From assembly GCA_963777505.1 (NCBI GenBank), contig CAVZQN010000004.1:1344001-1408000 (forward strand): 64,000 bases of DNA, given 5' to 3'. How positions within the stretch are numbered: position 1 is the stretch's first letter; each line of letters opens with the position of its first letter. The notes beneath the pieces were generated by a model. The model saw only the letters and a list, made by a program, of their open reading frames with translations. It was not told the origin of the DNA and made no database searches. Below, piece by piece: positions 37,061-41,987 of the stretch. Made by a program: the position numbers and the translations under genes. The DNA is from an uncultured bacterium. GTDB taxonomy: Bacteria > Acidobacteriota > HRBIN11 > JAKEFK01.

Positions 37061-37477
37061 TCAATCCTTCTCTTCCTCTTTCTCTTCCTCATTTGCATCA
37101 AGTGAAATTGGAGCGCTAAAAAGCTGTCCCGATGGCTCTCGAACTCCGTACAATGAGGGTATACTTCCGCCTCGTTGATAGTATTCCGGATATGGTAACG
37201 GTGGTTGCCATTCATATGTTTCAATCGCCAGCCGTTGCTCTAGTGATGGCAATTGAATGTTCAATGCAGGATATTTTGTCGATTCGACTTCAACGACTTC
37301 ATGTTTACCTGTCATATCCGATGTGTCTACTTCAGGAAGGGGTCTCAAGAGTTCTTTTGGATAAACGAGAATACTCTTCTTTTGAGGCTCTTTTTTGGGG
37401 GTCTCTTGGGATTGTGGCTCTTCGCCAAAGATTGCTGTTGAAGCAAGGAGAAACACTAAGAGAATGAACATCCGCAT
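37061..37477 (-). CDS. Hypothetical secreted protein
   Basis: AAGGAGG RBS; signal peptide MRMFILLVFLLASTAIFG; acidic tail. Confidence 0.75.
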   Translation of the reverse strand: MRMFILLVFLLASTAIFGEEPQSQETPKKEPQKKSILVYPKELLRPLPEVDTSDMTGKHEVVEVESTKYPALNIQLPSLEQRLAIETYEWQPPLPYPEYYQRGGSIPSLYGVREPSGQLFSAPISLDANEEEKEEEKD

Positions 37478-37647
37478 ATTTTCCTCCTTCTTATAAGATA
37501 TAAGATTTTTGAGCTTACTGCTCGGACTTTTTTTGCCTTAATTATATGAAACGCTTTTACCAGGACAGAATAATCCGAAAGCACTACAAGAAAGCACGAT
37601 GGTAGATCAGATTTGATTTTACGTGCTGAATAGTCGAGAATTCTTAC

Positions 37648-37989
37648 ATGCAAATACGTTTTCTCAGCCGACTATTTCAAACAACGAAGGAACCAGAGTC
37701 GAAGCCCACAACAAGCGACTCGATTACGAAACCGGTTCAGCCGAAAATCTCTGAGGCGCAGGACAGCTTTGAGGCGGCACCCCAACGAGGTTCCTATTTT
37801 TCAGGAAAATACCTTTCACAAACAGATCTTCAGCAGGAACAGAATTATTCCAGGGATCAAAACTCCGAAAGTTTAGTGAAATTCGATGCCGGTGAAATTC
37901 GGAATGCGTATGTCATCGGAAACCTATGGGATTCTAAGGACACTCCAACTGCCATAAAAAAGAAAGATTCTGATTCGGATGATGATTAA
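37648..37989 (+). CDS. Hypothetical protein carrying two short contractile-injection-system-like motifs
   Basis: 113 aa; RGSYFSGKYLSQTDLQQEQNY and LVKFDAGEIRNAYVIGNLWDSKDTP; no clear RBS. Confidence 0.6.
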   Translation: MQIRFLSRLFQTTKEPESKPTTSDSITKPVQPKISEAQDSFEAAPQRGSYFSGKYLSQTDLQQEQNYSRDQNSESLVKFDAGEIRNAYVIGNLWDSKDTPTAIKKKDSDSDDD

Positions 37990-38022: not shown

Positions 38023-39138
38023 CTAAGAAGCGAGCCGTGGGGATGTTAATAGAATCCGAACTAAATCGGATTGGCGGTTAGCACCGGTTTTCAAAAAAAT
38101 AGATTTCAGATGGCTGCGGACCGTGTTCACCTTGATTTCAAATTCTCTTGCAACTTGCATGACATTTTTGCCCTGCAGCAGTGCTGAAGATAATCGCGCC
38201 TCCGTGGGAGTGAGTCCATAAAGTTTACGAAATATTTCCTTGGGACCTGGAATTGCCAGATCCGGATCGCTGATAAAAAGCGCGGCGACAGCAGTATGGT
38301 TTTCAAACGAATACTCTCGCGAAAGCAATGGTGAAATCAATACGGGCAATGGCTGTGCGTGAAGTCTCCGTGATACCATCAACGCTCCACCAGTATTTTC
38401 TAGAGATCCATTCAAGTCAGATGATGCTTTTCGGATTAGTTCCTGCAATTTCCTATTGTCAAAAGCATTGACGGCGTGTATTTCGTTCCGCTTAATGATC
38501 AACCCGTTGCCTTGACCAGTAACGGTTTTGGCACTTTTGTTTGCAAGAATAATCTTTTTACTCTGATCCACTAGCACTACACCTGTTGGTAAACGGTCTA
38601 ACACTTCGAGCAAAGTATCACGCTCACCTTCAAGCATCGTGATACGTCCCAAAAAATAATTCTTTAGAATCTCTGCCTTCTGTTTATTTTCATTTTTATC
38701 CTGGATCTGGATGTCAATTACATACCTAACCCGCTTTACTATTAGCTGGAGGAAATTCCATGTGTTCGCCCAAAAACTTCTCATCAAGCGCCGAAAATCT
38801 TCCCGTTTTAAGATGAACGCTGTAACACGAGTTTTTGCGATCAAAGAAATGCGAAAAGGGTCATCATCAATTAAAGCCAGTTCGCCGATTGTATCTCCCG
38901 GAATTCTATGAGTCACTAAACTTCCATCCAAAAAGACTTCTGCTGTTCCCTCAGTAATCACGTATAAAGCTTTCCAAGGTTGATTTTCTGCCTGGAGTTC
39001 TTCTCCAGGATTGAAGCGCACCTTCTCGATTTTTCGCGCAATCTTACGCAGTAATGTTTCGGGGAGTTTTGTAAAAACTTCGATCCGTTTAAGGAGAATC
39101 AGACTTTCATTGAAAGTAGTCTTTTTTCGTACAGACAT
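38023..39138 (-). CDS. cNMP-binding + PAS-like + LuxR HTH transcriptional regulator
   Basis: LYVITEG...GDTIGELALI (cNMP), LDRLPTGVVLVD (PAS-like), LYGLTPTEARL...TVRSHLKSIFLKTG (LuxR). Confidence 0.85.
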   Translation of the reverse strand: MSVRKKTTFNESLILLKRIEVFTKLPETLLRKIARKIEKVRFNPGEELQAENQPWKALYVITEGTAEVFLDGSLVTHRIPGDTIGELALIDDDPFRISLIAKTRVTAFILKREDFRRLMRSFWANTWNFLQLIVKRVRYVIDIQIQDKNENKQKAEILKNYFLGRITMLEGERDTLLEVLDRLPTGVVLVDQSKKIILANKSAKTVTGQGNGLIIKRNEIHAVNAFDNRKLQELIRKASSDLNGSLENTGGALMVSRRLHAQPLPVLISPLLSREYSFENHTAVAALFISDPDLAIPGPKEIFRKLYGLTPTEARLSSALLQGKNVMQVAREFEIKVNTVRSHLKSIFLKTGANRQSDLVRILLTSPRLAS

Positions 39139-39180: not shown

Positions 39181-40170
39181 GTGTTGGGCGCGGAATTGTA
39201 TTTCCTTATTATACCAACCATTTACTACGGAAAGATGATGCACCAGATGTCGAACACTATTTTAGCAATCGGAGCCCTATTCGGACCGTATCGAATCCTT
39301 TCTCGGTTAGTAATAAGAGGATCCGGAGAATTGTATCGAGTAAGGGACATCCAATCTGAACGAGAACTAGCACTCAAGGTTTTATCCACGAACACTCACG
39401 GCGATCGTGAAGGATTAAATCTTCTCAAACTCCATGTAAATGAACTGGCTCAACTCTCTCACAAAAACATTTTAGCCATCAGGGATGTGGGAGTGGAGAA
39501 TAACATCTGCTATGCGGTTACTGAACTGATCGAAGGACAAACTCTCCAATCAAAATTGTCCCAATTTCCAGTTTCCTGGCAAAAGGCGGTCCAGTGGACC
39601 ATTGATATCGCTGAAGCCCTTGCCGCGGCTCACTCCATCGGGATGGTACATGGTGACCTCAATCCAAAAAGTATCTATGTGACTTCCGATGAATGTATCA
39701 AGATCCTGGATTTCGGATTAACTCGTTTTAGCAAGCCAAGAGTCGGAGCTGTTATGAATTCTGCTCCTTATCTGTCTCCCGAGCAGGTAGCGGGAGATGA
39801 TGCCGATTTCCGCAGCGACATCTTTTCTTTGGGCTGTTTACTGTACGAGATGATCAGTGGCCGATATGCATTCGGGCGTCCTTCCGTATTTGAAACTGTA
39901 AGTGCCATCATGAAGCAAGAACCGCAGAAACTTTCGGAATTGAAGAAAGATATTCCGTTAGAGCTTGATCGGATCATCTCGCATTGTTTAGAAAAGAAGC
40001 GTGGATCTCGTTATGCGTCAGCACGCGATTTGATCTTGGAATTGCGTCAAGTACTCGATCTCCTGGATGGCCGGATGGGATTGCCAAAAAACCGGCACTG
40101 GACCGCGGCAATCTCCGCAACAGCGATCATGGTTACCCTGCTTTATCTCAAATTCTGTGCCGCAGGTTAA
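39181..40170 (+). CDS. Ser/Thr protein kinase-like protein, possibly pseudokinase
   Basis: ALKVL, HGDLNPKS, KILDFGL, YLSPEQ, SDIFSLG; C-terminal hydrophobic segment; true start may be ATG 39235 or slightly later. Confidence 0.85.
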   Translation: MLGAELYFLIIPTIYYGKMMHQMSNTILAIGALFGPYRILSRLVIRGSGELYRVRDIQSERELALKVLSTNTHGDREGLNLLKLHVNELAQLSHKNILAIRDVGVENNICYAVTELIEGQTLQSKLSQFPVSWQKAVQWTIDIAEALAAAHSIGMVHGDLNPKSIYVTSDECIKILDFGLTRFSKPRVGAVMNSAPYLSPEQVAGDDADFRSDIFSLGCLLYEMISGRYAFGRPSVFETVSAIMKQEPQKLSELKKDIPLELDRIISHCLEKKRGSRYASARDLILELRQVLDLLDGRMGLPKNRHWTAAISATAIMVTLLYLKFCAAG

Positions 40171-40308: not shown

Positions 40309-40638
40309 ATGATACCTATCCGGTGTCATGAAGGCATCCTGCTCGTTGATCCGGATAAAATCAGTTGGGTTAAAGCAGCACGAAACTCCGTGAAGGTTCA
40401 CTTTGATGGACAAGTGTGTTCTCTGAAAAGCTCCCTGGAGTGCGTGGAACAACAACTCTATAGTAGTAATTTTGTTCGAATTCAGAGATGTACTATTGTT
40501 AATGTGAATTGCATTCGTGAATTAAGGCATTGGCTGCGTGGAACCTTTCAGGTGCATTTAGAGGATGGAACGCAGTTGTTGTTAAGCAAAAGCTATCGGA
40601 TGAATTTTTTCAAACAGCTTCGGCTACAGTCATATTGA
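40309..40638 (+). CDS. Stand-alone LytTR DNA-binding domain protein
   Basis: ISWVKA, NFVRIQRCTIVN, LLLSKSY; no receiver domain. Confidence 0.8.
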   Translation: MIPIRCHEGILLVDPDKISWVKAARNSVKVHFDGQVCSLKSSLECVEQQLYSSNFVRIQRCTIVNVNCIRELRHWLRGTFQVHLEDGTQLLLSKSYRMNFFKQLRLQSY

Positions 40639-41987
40639 ATAAAACCTTTCGAATTTTTGCATTTATCTTGATTTCAGTCATGCTGATGCATTTTTCCGTT
40701 TCAGCAGACACAGACAAGGTCCAACTTGCGGAAAAAGTGCGGCAGGAATTTCTGCACTCGTGGAACGGCTACAAACAATACGCATGGGGACATGATGCGC
40801 TCAAGCCTTTGAGCAAAACTCATCACGATTGGTATGGCGTCAGTTTGCTGATGACTCCTGTGGATGCAATGGATACGATGTATCTGATGGGTCTTAAAGA
40901 AGAAGCCGATAAGACAAAAGAATATGTTGTCAATAATTTATCCTTTGAAAAAGATATTTTCGTTAAGAATTTTGAAATCACGATCCGCATTTTAGGCGGG
41001 CTGCTCAGCACATATCAAATCACTGAAGATAAGCGTTTATTAGAAAAGGCAGTAGATCTTGGCAATCGATTGCTGCCGGTCTTTGATTCTCCTACCGGAA
41101 TGCCTTACATGTTCATTAATTTAAAAACCGGCGTGGTGCGGGGAGCTGAAACGAATCCAGCCGAGATCGGTACGCTTCTCATAGAGTTTGGAACACTCAG
41201 TAAACTGACCAAAAATCCAGTTTACTACGATAAAGCAAAACGTGCTGTCGTTGAGCTTTATAAGCGTCGTTCCGAAAAAGATCTTGTGGGTTCATCTATA
41301 AATGTTGAAACAGGAAAATGGATCGATTCCATCAGTCACATTAGCGGCGGAATTGATTCCTATTACGAATATTTGCTAAAGTGTGCCCGTCTTTTTGATG
41401 ACAAAGAATTAGACCAAATGTGGCAAACAAGCATTAAAGCTCTTAATAAACATCTAGCGGATGATGCTCCCACAGGATTTTGGTATGGATACGTAAACAT
41501 GAATACGGCGGAAAGAATTTCCACACGATTTGGAGCATTGGATGCATTCTTCCCGGCAGTGCTGGCTTTGTCAGGCGATCTAAATCGCGCAAAAAAGTTG
41601 CAAGACTCGGCCTATAAAATGTGGACCATTCATGGAATTGAGCCGGAAGAAATAGATTATGTAACCCTCAAAATAACTTATGATGGTTACAAGCTTCGTC
41701 CCGAAATTATAGAATCAGCCTACTATCTGTATTCGATGACAAAAGACCCGCGCTATCTTGAAATGGGAAGCACTTTCTTTGACAGCCTCCTGCGATATTG
41801 CAGAACAGATACCGGATATGCAGCTCTTAGCAGCGTTGAAAATAAGGAAAAGAAAGATGAGATGGAAAGCTTCTTTCTTGCTGAAACGTTGAAATATTTG
41901 TATTTGCTGTTTGCGCCGCCGGAGACGCTTGATTTATCAAAGGTAACGTTTAATACAGAAGCCCATCCGATTAAAAAAACGTGGTAG
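40635..41987 (+). CDS. Glycoside hydrolase family 47 (class I alpha-1,2-mannosidase), secreted
   Basis: YAWGHD, FEITIRILGGLLS, IDSYYEYLLK, LRPEIIES, MESFFLAETLKYLYLLF, NTEAHP; TTG 40635 overlaps the LytTR stop and gives a signal peptide. Confidence 0.92.
   Translation: MNKTFRIFAFILISVMLMHFSVSADTDKVQLAEKVRQEFLHSWNGYKQYAWGHDALKPLSKTHHDWYGVSLLMTPVDAMDTMYLMGLKEEADKTKEYVVNNLSFEKDIFVKNFEITIRILGGLLSTYQITEDKRLLEKAVDLGNRLLPVFDSPTGMPYMFINLKTGVVRGAETNPAEIGTLLIEFGTLSKLTKNPVYYDKAKRAVVELYKRRSEKDLVGSSINVETGKWIDSISHISGGIDSYYEYLLKCARLFDDKELDQMWQTSIKALNKHLADDAPTGFWYGYVNMNTAERISTRFGALDAFFPAVLALSGDLNRAKKLQDSAYKMWTIHGIEPEEIDYVTLKITYDGYKLRPEIIESAYYLYSMTKDPRYLEMGSTFFDSLLRYCRTDTGYAALSSVENKEKKDEMESFFLAETLKYLYLLFAPPETLDLSKVTFNTEAHPIKKTW

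Follow-up and report, generated by a model that had tools for sequence, protein, structure and literature searches.

What could a protein of 113 residues be doing that appears to be strung together from pieces of a contractile injection machine, in a bacterium in whose genome no such machine is found? The question is raised by a stretch of 64,000 nucleotides (the window) from an uncultured acidobacterium (GenBank assembly GCA_963777505.1, contig CAVZQN010000004.1, positions 1,344,001 to 1,408,000; the source genome, here G000, is 95.86% complete in 14 contigs), in which an open reading frame (ORF) encodes the protein P0001. A leader, two segments recalling contractile injection systems and an acidic tail had been described for this ORF in an original prediction made from the DNA alone, and the translation reproduces that layout exactly, with QDSFE (residues 38-42) closing the polar leader. 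In sequence comparisons P0001 reads as a string of a leader (~42 residues), the start of a fibre anchor (~23 residues), the hairpin of a spike OB-fold (oligonucleotide/oligosaccharide-binding fold) and a poly-Asp end. With respect to its role, our tentative reading is that P0001 may be a peptide mimic competing for the baseplate docking sites of foreign contractile tails, which we consider possible, if short of probable.

P0001 belongs to a small and rare family. An exhaustive HMMER search of 1.84 billion representative sequences returned 11 proteins at E ≤ 1e-3, five at E ≤ 1e-10 and one at E ≤ 1e-30, and a word-indexed profile search of 5.8 billion clusters placed the family at 13 protein clusters. 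None of the relatives bears a descriptive name in the protein databases, and four are labelled 'hypothetical protein'. The term orphan, used in the original prediction, has to be narrowed, as this small family exists and the leader is common to other genes of G000. Scanned as a whole, P0001 gave no Pfam match at E ≤ 10 and a single PHROGs match at E = 0.36, and a search of genome contigs with P0001 as a single sequence found no relative. A metagenome scan with alignment A4 yielded three loci that matched in the OB hairpin only, the readable one of which (L080) is a full-length spike.

Conservation within the family is island-like. In an alignment of the nine closest sequences (A2; 96-123 amino acids (aa) long), M1, I3, D39, F41, Q65, F79, G82, Y88 and G91 are invariant and both motifs are retained. 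Mean pairwise identity is 0.57 in the N-cap and in the DSFE box, 0.43 in motif 1 and 0.51 in motif 2, and it falls to 0.20 in the polar linker and 0.23 in the tail (linkers overall 0.20-0.35). AlphaFold2, given the family alignment as input, returned no fold for the P0001 monomer (mean predicted local distance difference test score (pLDDT) 58, predicted template modelling score (pTM) 0.16). Together, the island-like conservation and the foldless model lead us to read P0001 as a predicted intrinsically disordered protein carrying short linear motifs. The 11 matches at E ≤ 1e-3 and the confinement of conservation to islands likewise indicate that the ORF is a genuine, selected gene, more than a chance ORF; no overlapping ORF conserved to a similar degree was seen at its coordinates.

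The second segment had been predicted to resemble the end of the gp5/VgrG/GpV OB-fold, and this proved correct by several routes. NF033848 (NCBIfam, VgrG-related protein) matched P0001 at E = 1.8e-5, residues 69-110 falling on profile positions 426-467 of 547 with a score of 23.3 bits against a family cut-off of 275, and it matched 10 of the 12 members of the family alignment A1. PF04717 (the Phage_base_V OB domain) matched seven of these 12; P0001 itself gave no match at E ≤ 10. The A2 profile retrieved a gp5/Vgr OB-fold protein from the PDB (9gtr chain q, E = 3.4e-4), and the 219-aa spike P0019 of an extracellular contractile injection system (eCIS) from the same phylum (genome G250) detected P0001 at a genome-wide E of 9.9e-5, with spike residues 70-105 aligned to P0001 residues 72-107. 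The region of ~72-107 aligns with the last two OB-fold strands and the turn into the needle, and shares with gp5/VgrG the consensus E-V-L-V-x-F-x-x-G-D-x-x-x-P-Y-V-I-G-x-L-W-N-x-x-D-x-P. However, in contrast to a gp5/VgrG spike, P0001 has only ~33 of the 75 OB-fold positions, lacks both the gp27-like hub domain and the beta-helix needle, and has no contractile-system locus (sheath, tube, baseplate genes) alongside it in G000. By these alignments, motif 2 is the closing hairpin of the OB-fold in gp5/VgrG spikes, and the match, though genuine, is limited to that hairpin.

For the first segment, the original prediction had named the N-terminal motif of eCIS fibres, and the sequence evidence that motif 1 corresponds to the CIS13-type fibre N-terminus is strong across the family and weak in P0001. 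Positions 3-29 of NF053767 (NCBIfam, CIS13 family; 392 positions) matched four relatives (P0003, P0005, P0010 and P0013; E 8e-4 to 2e-2), whereas P0001 gave no match at E ≤ 1. An independent hidden Markov model (HMM) of 26 columns, made from six fibre N-termini from the eCIS loci of G250, G134, G217 and G220, nevertheless ranked P0001 first among the 63,017 six-frame ORFs of G000 (E = 0.021; next best 4.5). On the same scale the relatives of P0001 scored 4e-10 to 2e-3, and a pairwise comparison of P0001 with an authentic fibre (L083) gave E = 0.0027. In G072, G197, G035 (an unpublished genome), G385 and G250, large ORFs with motif 1 share a contig with gp5 spike genes, at a distance of 10-14 kb. 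A PDB search with the 29-aa motif 1 alone had no match at E ≤ 10, and no long protein sharing residues 30-72 was found at E ≤ 10, which is weak evidence with three candidates scored. Thus profile matches exist for the segments and homologues keep both motifs, the two points on which the original prediction had staked itself.

In Anabaena, the N-terminal domains of Cis13 have been reported to attach to the baseplate (PMC8894136). P0001 residues 47-69 appear to correspond to the extreme N-terminal R-x-x-Y-F-x-G-K/Q-x-L-x3-D-F/L-x2-E-Q-x-Y of the CIS13/eBAP fibre anchors. Unlike in these fibres, the motif is internal in P0001, where it follows a 46-residue leader and ends after ~23 residues; the remainder of the anchor domain (K-R-x-L-x-N-R ... 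G-x-G-V-V-x-G-L) is missing, as is the entire fibre, and the gene is not downstream of baseplate genes. A CIS13 fibre has a full anchor domain of ~150-200 aa and a fibre/receptor-binding part, neither of which is present in the 113 aa of P0001. The full domains that define the spike and fibre families were tested for and are absent, which places P0001 outside both. The acidobacterial eCIS operon of G250 encodes sheath, gp19 tube, Pvc16_N, AAA ATPase, CIS_tube-LysM, gp27-like, gp5 spike, gp25 and two baseplate-J proteins, as well as a Cis12 with a tail_P2_I domain. We also observed that on G250 contig C198 (L039, L081/L085/L089) three genes in a row come after the complete operon, all with a CIS13-type N-terminus but with differing C-termini, making this a multi-fibre locus.

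Fragmentary matches of this kind could be expected from what is left of spike and fibre genes in decay, or from a spurious functionless ORF, and the closest relative, P0002 (83% identical), indeed departs from P0001 after residue ~90 and terminates early. However, full-length relatives of 113-123 aa at 30-45% identity retain invariant residues, the order of the motifs in P0001 is unlike the gene order of eCIS operons, in which the spike is upstream of the fibres, and the leader is common to intact paralogues. We consider decay or chance highly improbable as an explanation of P0001.

The relatives follow the same grammar as P0001 with other baseplate pieces, namely a DUF6519/eBAP5 N-terminus and a baseplate-J motif. 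A 130-aa homologue in G001, a genome of the same genus, has the leader and motif 1, and motif 2 is replaced by Y-T-G-V-L-L-Q-Q-G-R-V-Q-L-D-A-D; P0007 carries all three motifs and P0012 carries motif 1 and the third. In the phylum sample, the profile of the third motif located it at the extreme N-terminus of large ORFs, and 7/7 of those scanned matched PF20129 (DUF6519) at 3e-57 or better. DUF6519 has been described as eBAP5, among five N-terminal baseplate-anchor domains (eBAP1-5) of eCIS tail fibres, of which eBAP3 and eBAP5 were modelled as binding the Tail_P2_I adaptor (PMC12923769). The G001 homologue, P0007 and P0012 thus carry the DUF6519/eBAP5 N-terminal peptide alone, equivalent to the anchor start; its motif, Q-Q-G-R-V-x-L-D-x-D, is absent from P0001 itself. 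A further paralogue in G000 (C4:1251802-1252977, minus strand; L044) has a baseplate-J (Cis11-type) fragment of ~40 residues directly after the leader, and this fragment, L-N-F-G-D-G-L-S-G-K-T-P-P-I-G-N-Q-N-I-T-A-T-Y, aligns to residues 867-907 of G250 baseplate-J at a genome-wide E of 0.044. The ORF as read is 392 aa long; its C-terminal half appears to be non-coding or misread.

Motif strings also occur without the leader. In G073, from a different family of the phylum, a leaderless 278-aa ORF (L116, 1477-2313, plus strand) combines a DUF6519 N-terminus, a baseplate-J motif, motif 1 and a DDDD end, and in G121 the Rhs core of a 3,724-aa Rhs protein (L038, 3-7178, plus strand) is followed by a pair of DUF6519-type N-terminal motifs and the OB hairpin. 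Among other giant Rhs/YD-repeat proteins, those of G387 (L020) and G173 (L025) have a gp5 OB-fold region after the core, whole in the former and partial in the latter, and the OB/DUF6519 modules of the G121, G387 and G173 proteins occupy the usual place of the toxin domain. A small protein of G155 (L098) has a signal-peptide-like start, the DUF6519 N-terminal motif and then a coiled coil.

The statement that no tail genes are present in the window holds there and across the whole of G000, in which the search for an eCIS locus proposed with the original prediction found none. Of the profiles for sheath, tube, baseplate-J and base-V proteins, PF04717 and PF04984 had no credible match in G000 and PF06841 and PF04865 had none, and the P0001 ORF was the sole match to NF033848. 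The 13 proteins of the G250 eCIS locus, used as phmmer queries, found no machine component in G000; they retrieved just P0001 (with the spike), the paralogue with the baseplate-J fragment, generic AAA proteins and LysM domains. The tube family (gp19) was likewise found in 0/5 of the relatives G001-G005 (G001 being 96% complete in 8 contigs) and in 0/5 of the mosaic-bearing genomes G073, G121, G155, G355 and G045. P0001-type proteins do not depend on a resident machine.

These absences bear on a second possibility, that P0001 serves a contractile injection system as accessory part, adaptor or cargo and rides on the baseplate or spike, the machine being encoded in the unassembled ~4% of the genome, too divergent, or that of a partner organism. 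In real eCIS parts the motifs serve as docking segments, the G121 Rhs protein bears the same module at its C-terminal tip, and eCIS cargo uses disordered N-terminal signals for loading (Jiang et al. 2022, as cited in PMC12923769), which the leader of P0001 resembles in being disordered, on otherwise unrelated small proteins. The packaging leader suggested in the original prediction gains indirect support at most: the leader is a module common to at least 12 genes, but G000 has no injection system that could take up a cargo. However, in contrast to such cargo, P0001 is encoded in a genome without an eCIS or a Pvc15-type loading context and has no toxin domain. The missing sheath, tube, baseplate-J and base-V families, the failure of the 13 same-phylum eCIS proteins to retrieve a component and the lack of the tube family in the other genomes further argue against an adaptor or cargo, and no conserved gene neighbourhood was found between the family members of G000 and G001. 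The leader motif was not found in the eCIS loci fetched from other genomes (best E = 6.3). We regard a role in an injection system of the cell's own or of a partner as unlikely.

The leader itself defines a wider set of proteins. The search for paralogues sharing the DSFE leader, suggested along with the original prediction, was productive: the first ~42 residues of P0001 are common to at least 11 other G000 proteins, and 12 ORFs have a leader box G-[IV]-x4-D-[SG]-F-E at a distance of 28-39 residues from a start of the form M-x-I-K/R. A profile built from these leader ORFs (A3) gave, at E ≤ 1e-3 over 401 sampled genomes, 12 matches in G000, which are matches by construction, five in G001 and none in the other 399 genomes. 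The leader thus appears restricted to one genus in this sample. Five more relatives, all unnamed, were returned by a protein database search with the leader, and the eight leader paralogues scanned have no Pfam family. The payloads of the leader ORFs differ widely, comprising coiled coils and Thr-rich and Ala-rich segments, and poly-Asp or acidic C-termini recur in many leader paralogues and in the leaderless G073 mosaic.

This diversity fits a third explanation, that P0001 belongs to a lineage-specific family of disordered leader proteins with a job unrelated to contractile tails, in the envelope or peptidoglycan or in Ser/Thr-kinase/FHA signalling, and that the injection pieces were captured and reused as generic interaction or oligomerisation peptides or were merely inherited. 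At least 12 leader ORFs in G000 and five in G001 carry very different payloads, and an injection-system fragment is present in only 2/12 of those in G000. Furthermore, a Ser/Thr kinase lies within 6 kb of 7/12 leader genes compared to 2.9 expected (2000 random placements, P ~0.0125), and FHA-domain, PG_binding_1 and LysM proteins recur near leader genes. The kinase enrichment is, however, modest and post hoc, in a genome with ~120 kinase ORF pieces, and within the P0001 subfamily conservation is highest in the motifs. Moreover, the motif combinations recur without the leader in G073 and on the C-terminus of the G121 Rhs protein, which argues that the motifs themselves are functional units. A job unrelated to contractile tails is conceivable, though we find it somewhat doubtful.

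Two further leads on the leader family were rejected. A shared sigma-54 promoter was dismissed, as TGGCA-N-TTGC precedes only 3/12 leader genes, of which two are duplicates, and P0001 is not among the three. For C7:199278, C7:177172 and C13:8424, the upstream distance of the sigma-54-type match (TGGCAC-N5-TTGC-like) is 54-63 nt, and an FHA-GAF-sigma-54 activator is encoded nearby at C7:192499-194415. The 18-kb contig C13 duplicates part of C7 (~171000-183500) at 64-100% amino-acid identity, mostly >90%, including a leader gene and a kinase, and is either a repeated or mobile segment or an assembly duplicate. The second lead, from the appearance of the paralogues and from a protein-language-model atlas, was that leader proteins are type III substrates (one paralogue, 0.77-0.87); it was rejected, as FHIPEP (SctV/FlhA; PF00771) has no match in G000.

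If P0001 is instead a mimic of baseplate peptides, its fragments are proposed to fold on partner binding, because their length would not suffice for independent folding and, in real machines, such segments serve for docking or sheet formation. They would bind the usual recipients of such segments, a Tail_P2_I/Cis12-type fibre adaptor and the spike or hub, and P0001 would compete with fibres or spike, blocking or misdirecting baseplate assembly or fibre attachment. With no contractile machine in the host genome, the most likely target would be foreign contractile tails that are put together inside or close to the cell, for instance by a myophage or as part of an injection system of a competitor. 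For the wider protein family, the leader and the acidic tail would represent a common targeting, processing or stability module. In a broader form, 'baseplate-motif strings' in some Acidobacteriota in which no machine was found could be multivalent decoys that jam foreign tails (myophages, tailocins, eCIS), with the Rhs-borne module as a delivered 'anti-weapon' payload; this extension seems to us rather doubtful.

Several observations weigh against such a mimic. The motif 1 match of P0001 itself is weak in both comparisons and missing for NF053767, and in motif 2 an Ala stands where seven of the nine A2 sequences have the Pro of the P-Y-V box (the ninth, P0014, has P-Y-F). A tblastn search of 50,697 phage records returned nothing at E ≤ 1, and hence no target phage is known. 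A spike-type match was present in only 24/400 other sampled genomes of the phylum (~6%), so that the absence of a machine from ~11 genomes is not statistically remarkable. Most leader paralogues carry no injection-system motif, and the common function of the leader family may be unrelated to injection machines. The P0001 gene lies in no recognisable defence island or prophage, its neighbours being permeases, a regulator with cyclic nucleotide monophosphate (cNMP)-binding, PAS and LuxR parts, a Ser/Thr kinase and a glycosyl hydrolase family 47 (GH47) enzyme. Finally, a competitor's injection particles arrive pre-assembled with their fibres attached, which limits any decoy.

Interference with tail assembly is an established defence principle, represented by Tab (PMC10884400) and Tai (PMC11364771). 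P0001 as a mimic would resemble these systems in being a host-encoded protein that disturbs the invader's tail assembly. However, Tab and Tai are reported from prophages, phage-inducible chromosomal islands (PICIs) and satellites, some with counter-defence partners, and the P0001 gene shows no such context. Mimicry by copied structural peptides does not figure in the abstracts on Tab and Tai, and the likeness proposed for P0001 concerns the principle. Literature on Cis13, DUF6519, DUF4815, baseplate decoys and the contractile injection systems of Acidobacteria, supplements not covered, contained no description of such mosaic proteins. A parallel to such mimicry would be that of viruses, which mimic eukaryotic short linear motifs; among bacterial defences we found no description of short-linear-motif mimicry of virion or injection parts.

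In the window, the P0001 gene is flanked upstream by a divergent 138-aa secreted-looking ORF (37061-37477, minus strand) and downstream by the convergent cNMP-binding/PAS/LuxR regulator (38023-39138, minus strand), beyond which lies the Ser/Thr kinase (39181-40170). The bacterial GH47 (alpha-mannosidase-type) gene occupies 40530-41987 on the plus strand (E = 2.3e-125) and is adjoined by a gene for a stand-alone LytTR DNA-binding protein (40309-40638). The parts of P0001 and the leader paralogues are listed in the table.

Table. Parts of the P0001 gene (window positions) and leader paralogues in G000 (contig and position)
Feature	Position	Strand	Basis
Whole ORF, 113 aa + stop (P0001)	37648..37989	+	translation; family found by HMMER and profile search
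N-cap MQIRFLSRLF, aa 1-10, first conserved island of the leader	37648..37677	+	M1, I3 invariant in A2; identity 0.57
Polar linker, aa 11-32, weakly conserved	37678..37743	+	identity 0.20; AlphaFold2 pLDDT <50 at residues 16-29
Leader box K-I-S-E-A-Q-D-S-F-E, aa 33-42	37744..37773	+	D39, F41 invariant in A2 and A3
Motif 1, RGSYFSGKYLSQTDLQQEQNYSR, aa 47-69	37786..37854	+	like first ~23 residues of CIS13-type eCIS fibre anchor
Motif 2, LVKFDAGEIRNAYVIGNLWDSKDTP, aa 76-100 (match spans ~72-107)	37873..37947	+	like last beta-hairpin of gp5/VgrG spike OB-fold
Charged tail, aa 101-113, KKKDSDSDDD, ends DSDSDDD	37948..37986	+	read from sequence
Candidate sigma-70-like promoter, weak, 9/12 positions	37546..37574	+	1 site vs shuffle mean 1.8, not above chance
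Leader paralogue	C1:423979-424539	-	leader box
Leader paralogue	C1:262862-263404	-	leader box
Leader paralogue	C4:597068-597493	+	leader box
Leader paralogue	C4:1012599-1013096	-	leader box
Leader paralogue	C4:1251802-1252977	-	leader box
Leader paralogue	C5:63114-63434	+	leader box
Leader paralogue	C7:147910-148179	+	leader box
Leader paralogue	C7:177172-177687	+	leader box
Leader paralogue	C7:197611-199278	-	leader box
Leader paralogue	C8:408331-408963	-	leader box
Leader paralogue	C13:7915-8424	-	leader box

If P0001 and its relatives are mimics, very small disordered proteins composed of copies of the enemy's baseplate peptides would defend bacteria or disarm their rivals. Such interference with assembly would be cheap and evolvable, and would constitute a new defence principle. 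Furthermore, the copied peptides would pinpoint the true docking segments of eCIS fibres and spikes, which would be useful for the engineering of programmable injection systems. Even if mimicry fails as an explanation, an undescribed, genus-restricted family of leader-bearing disordered proteins is documented here, together with baseplate peptides that are repeatedly reused as modules in genomes in which no such machine was found.
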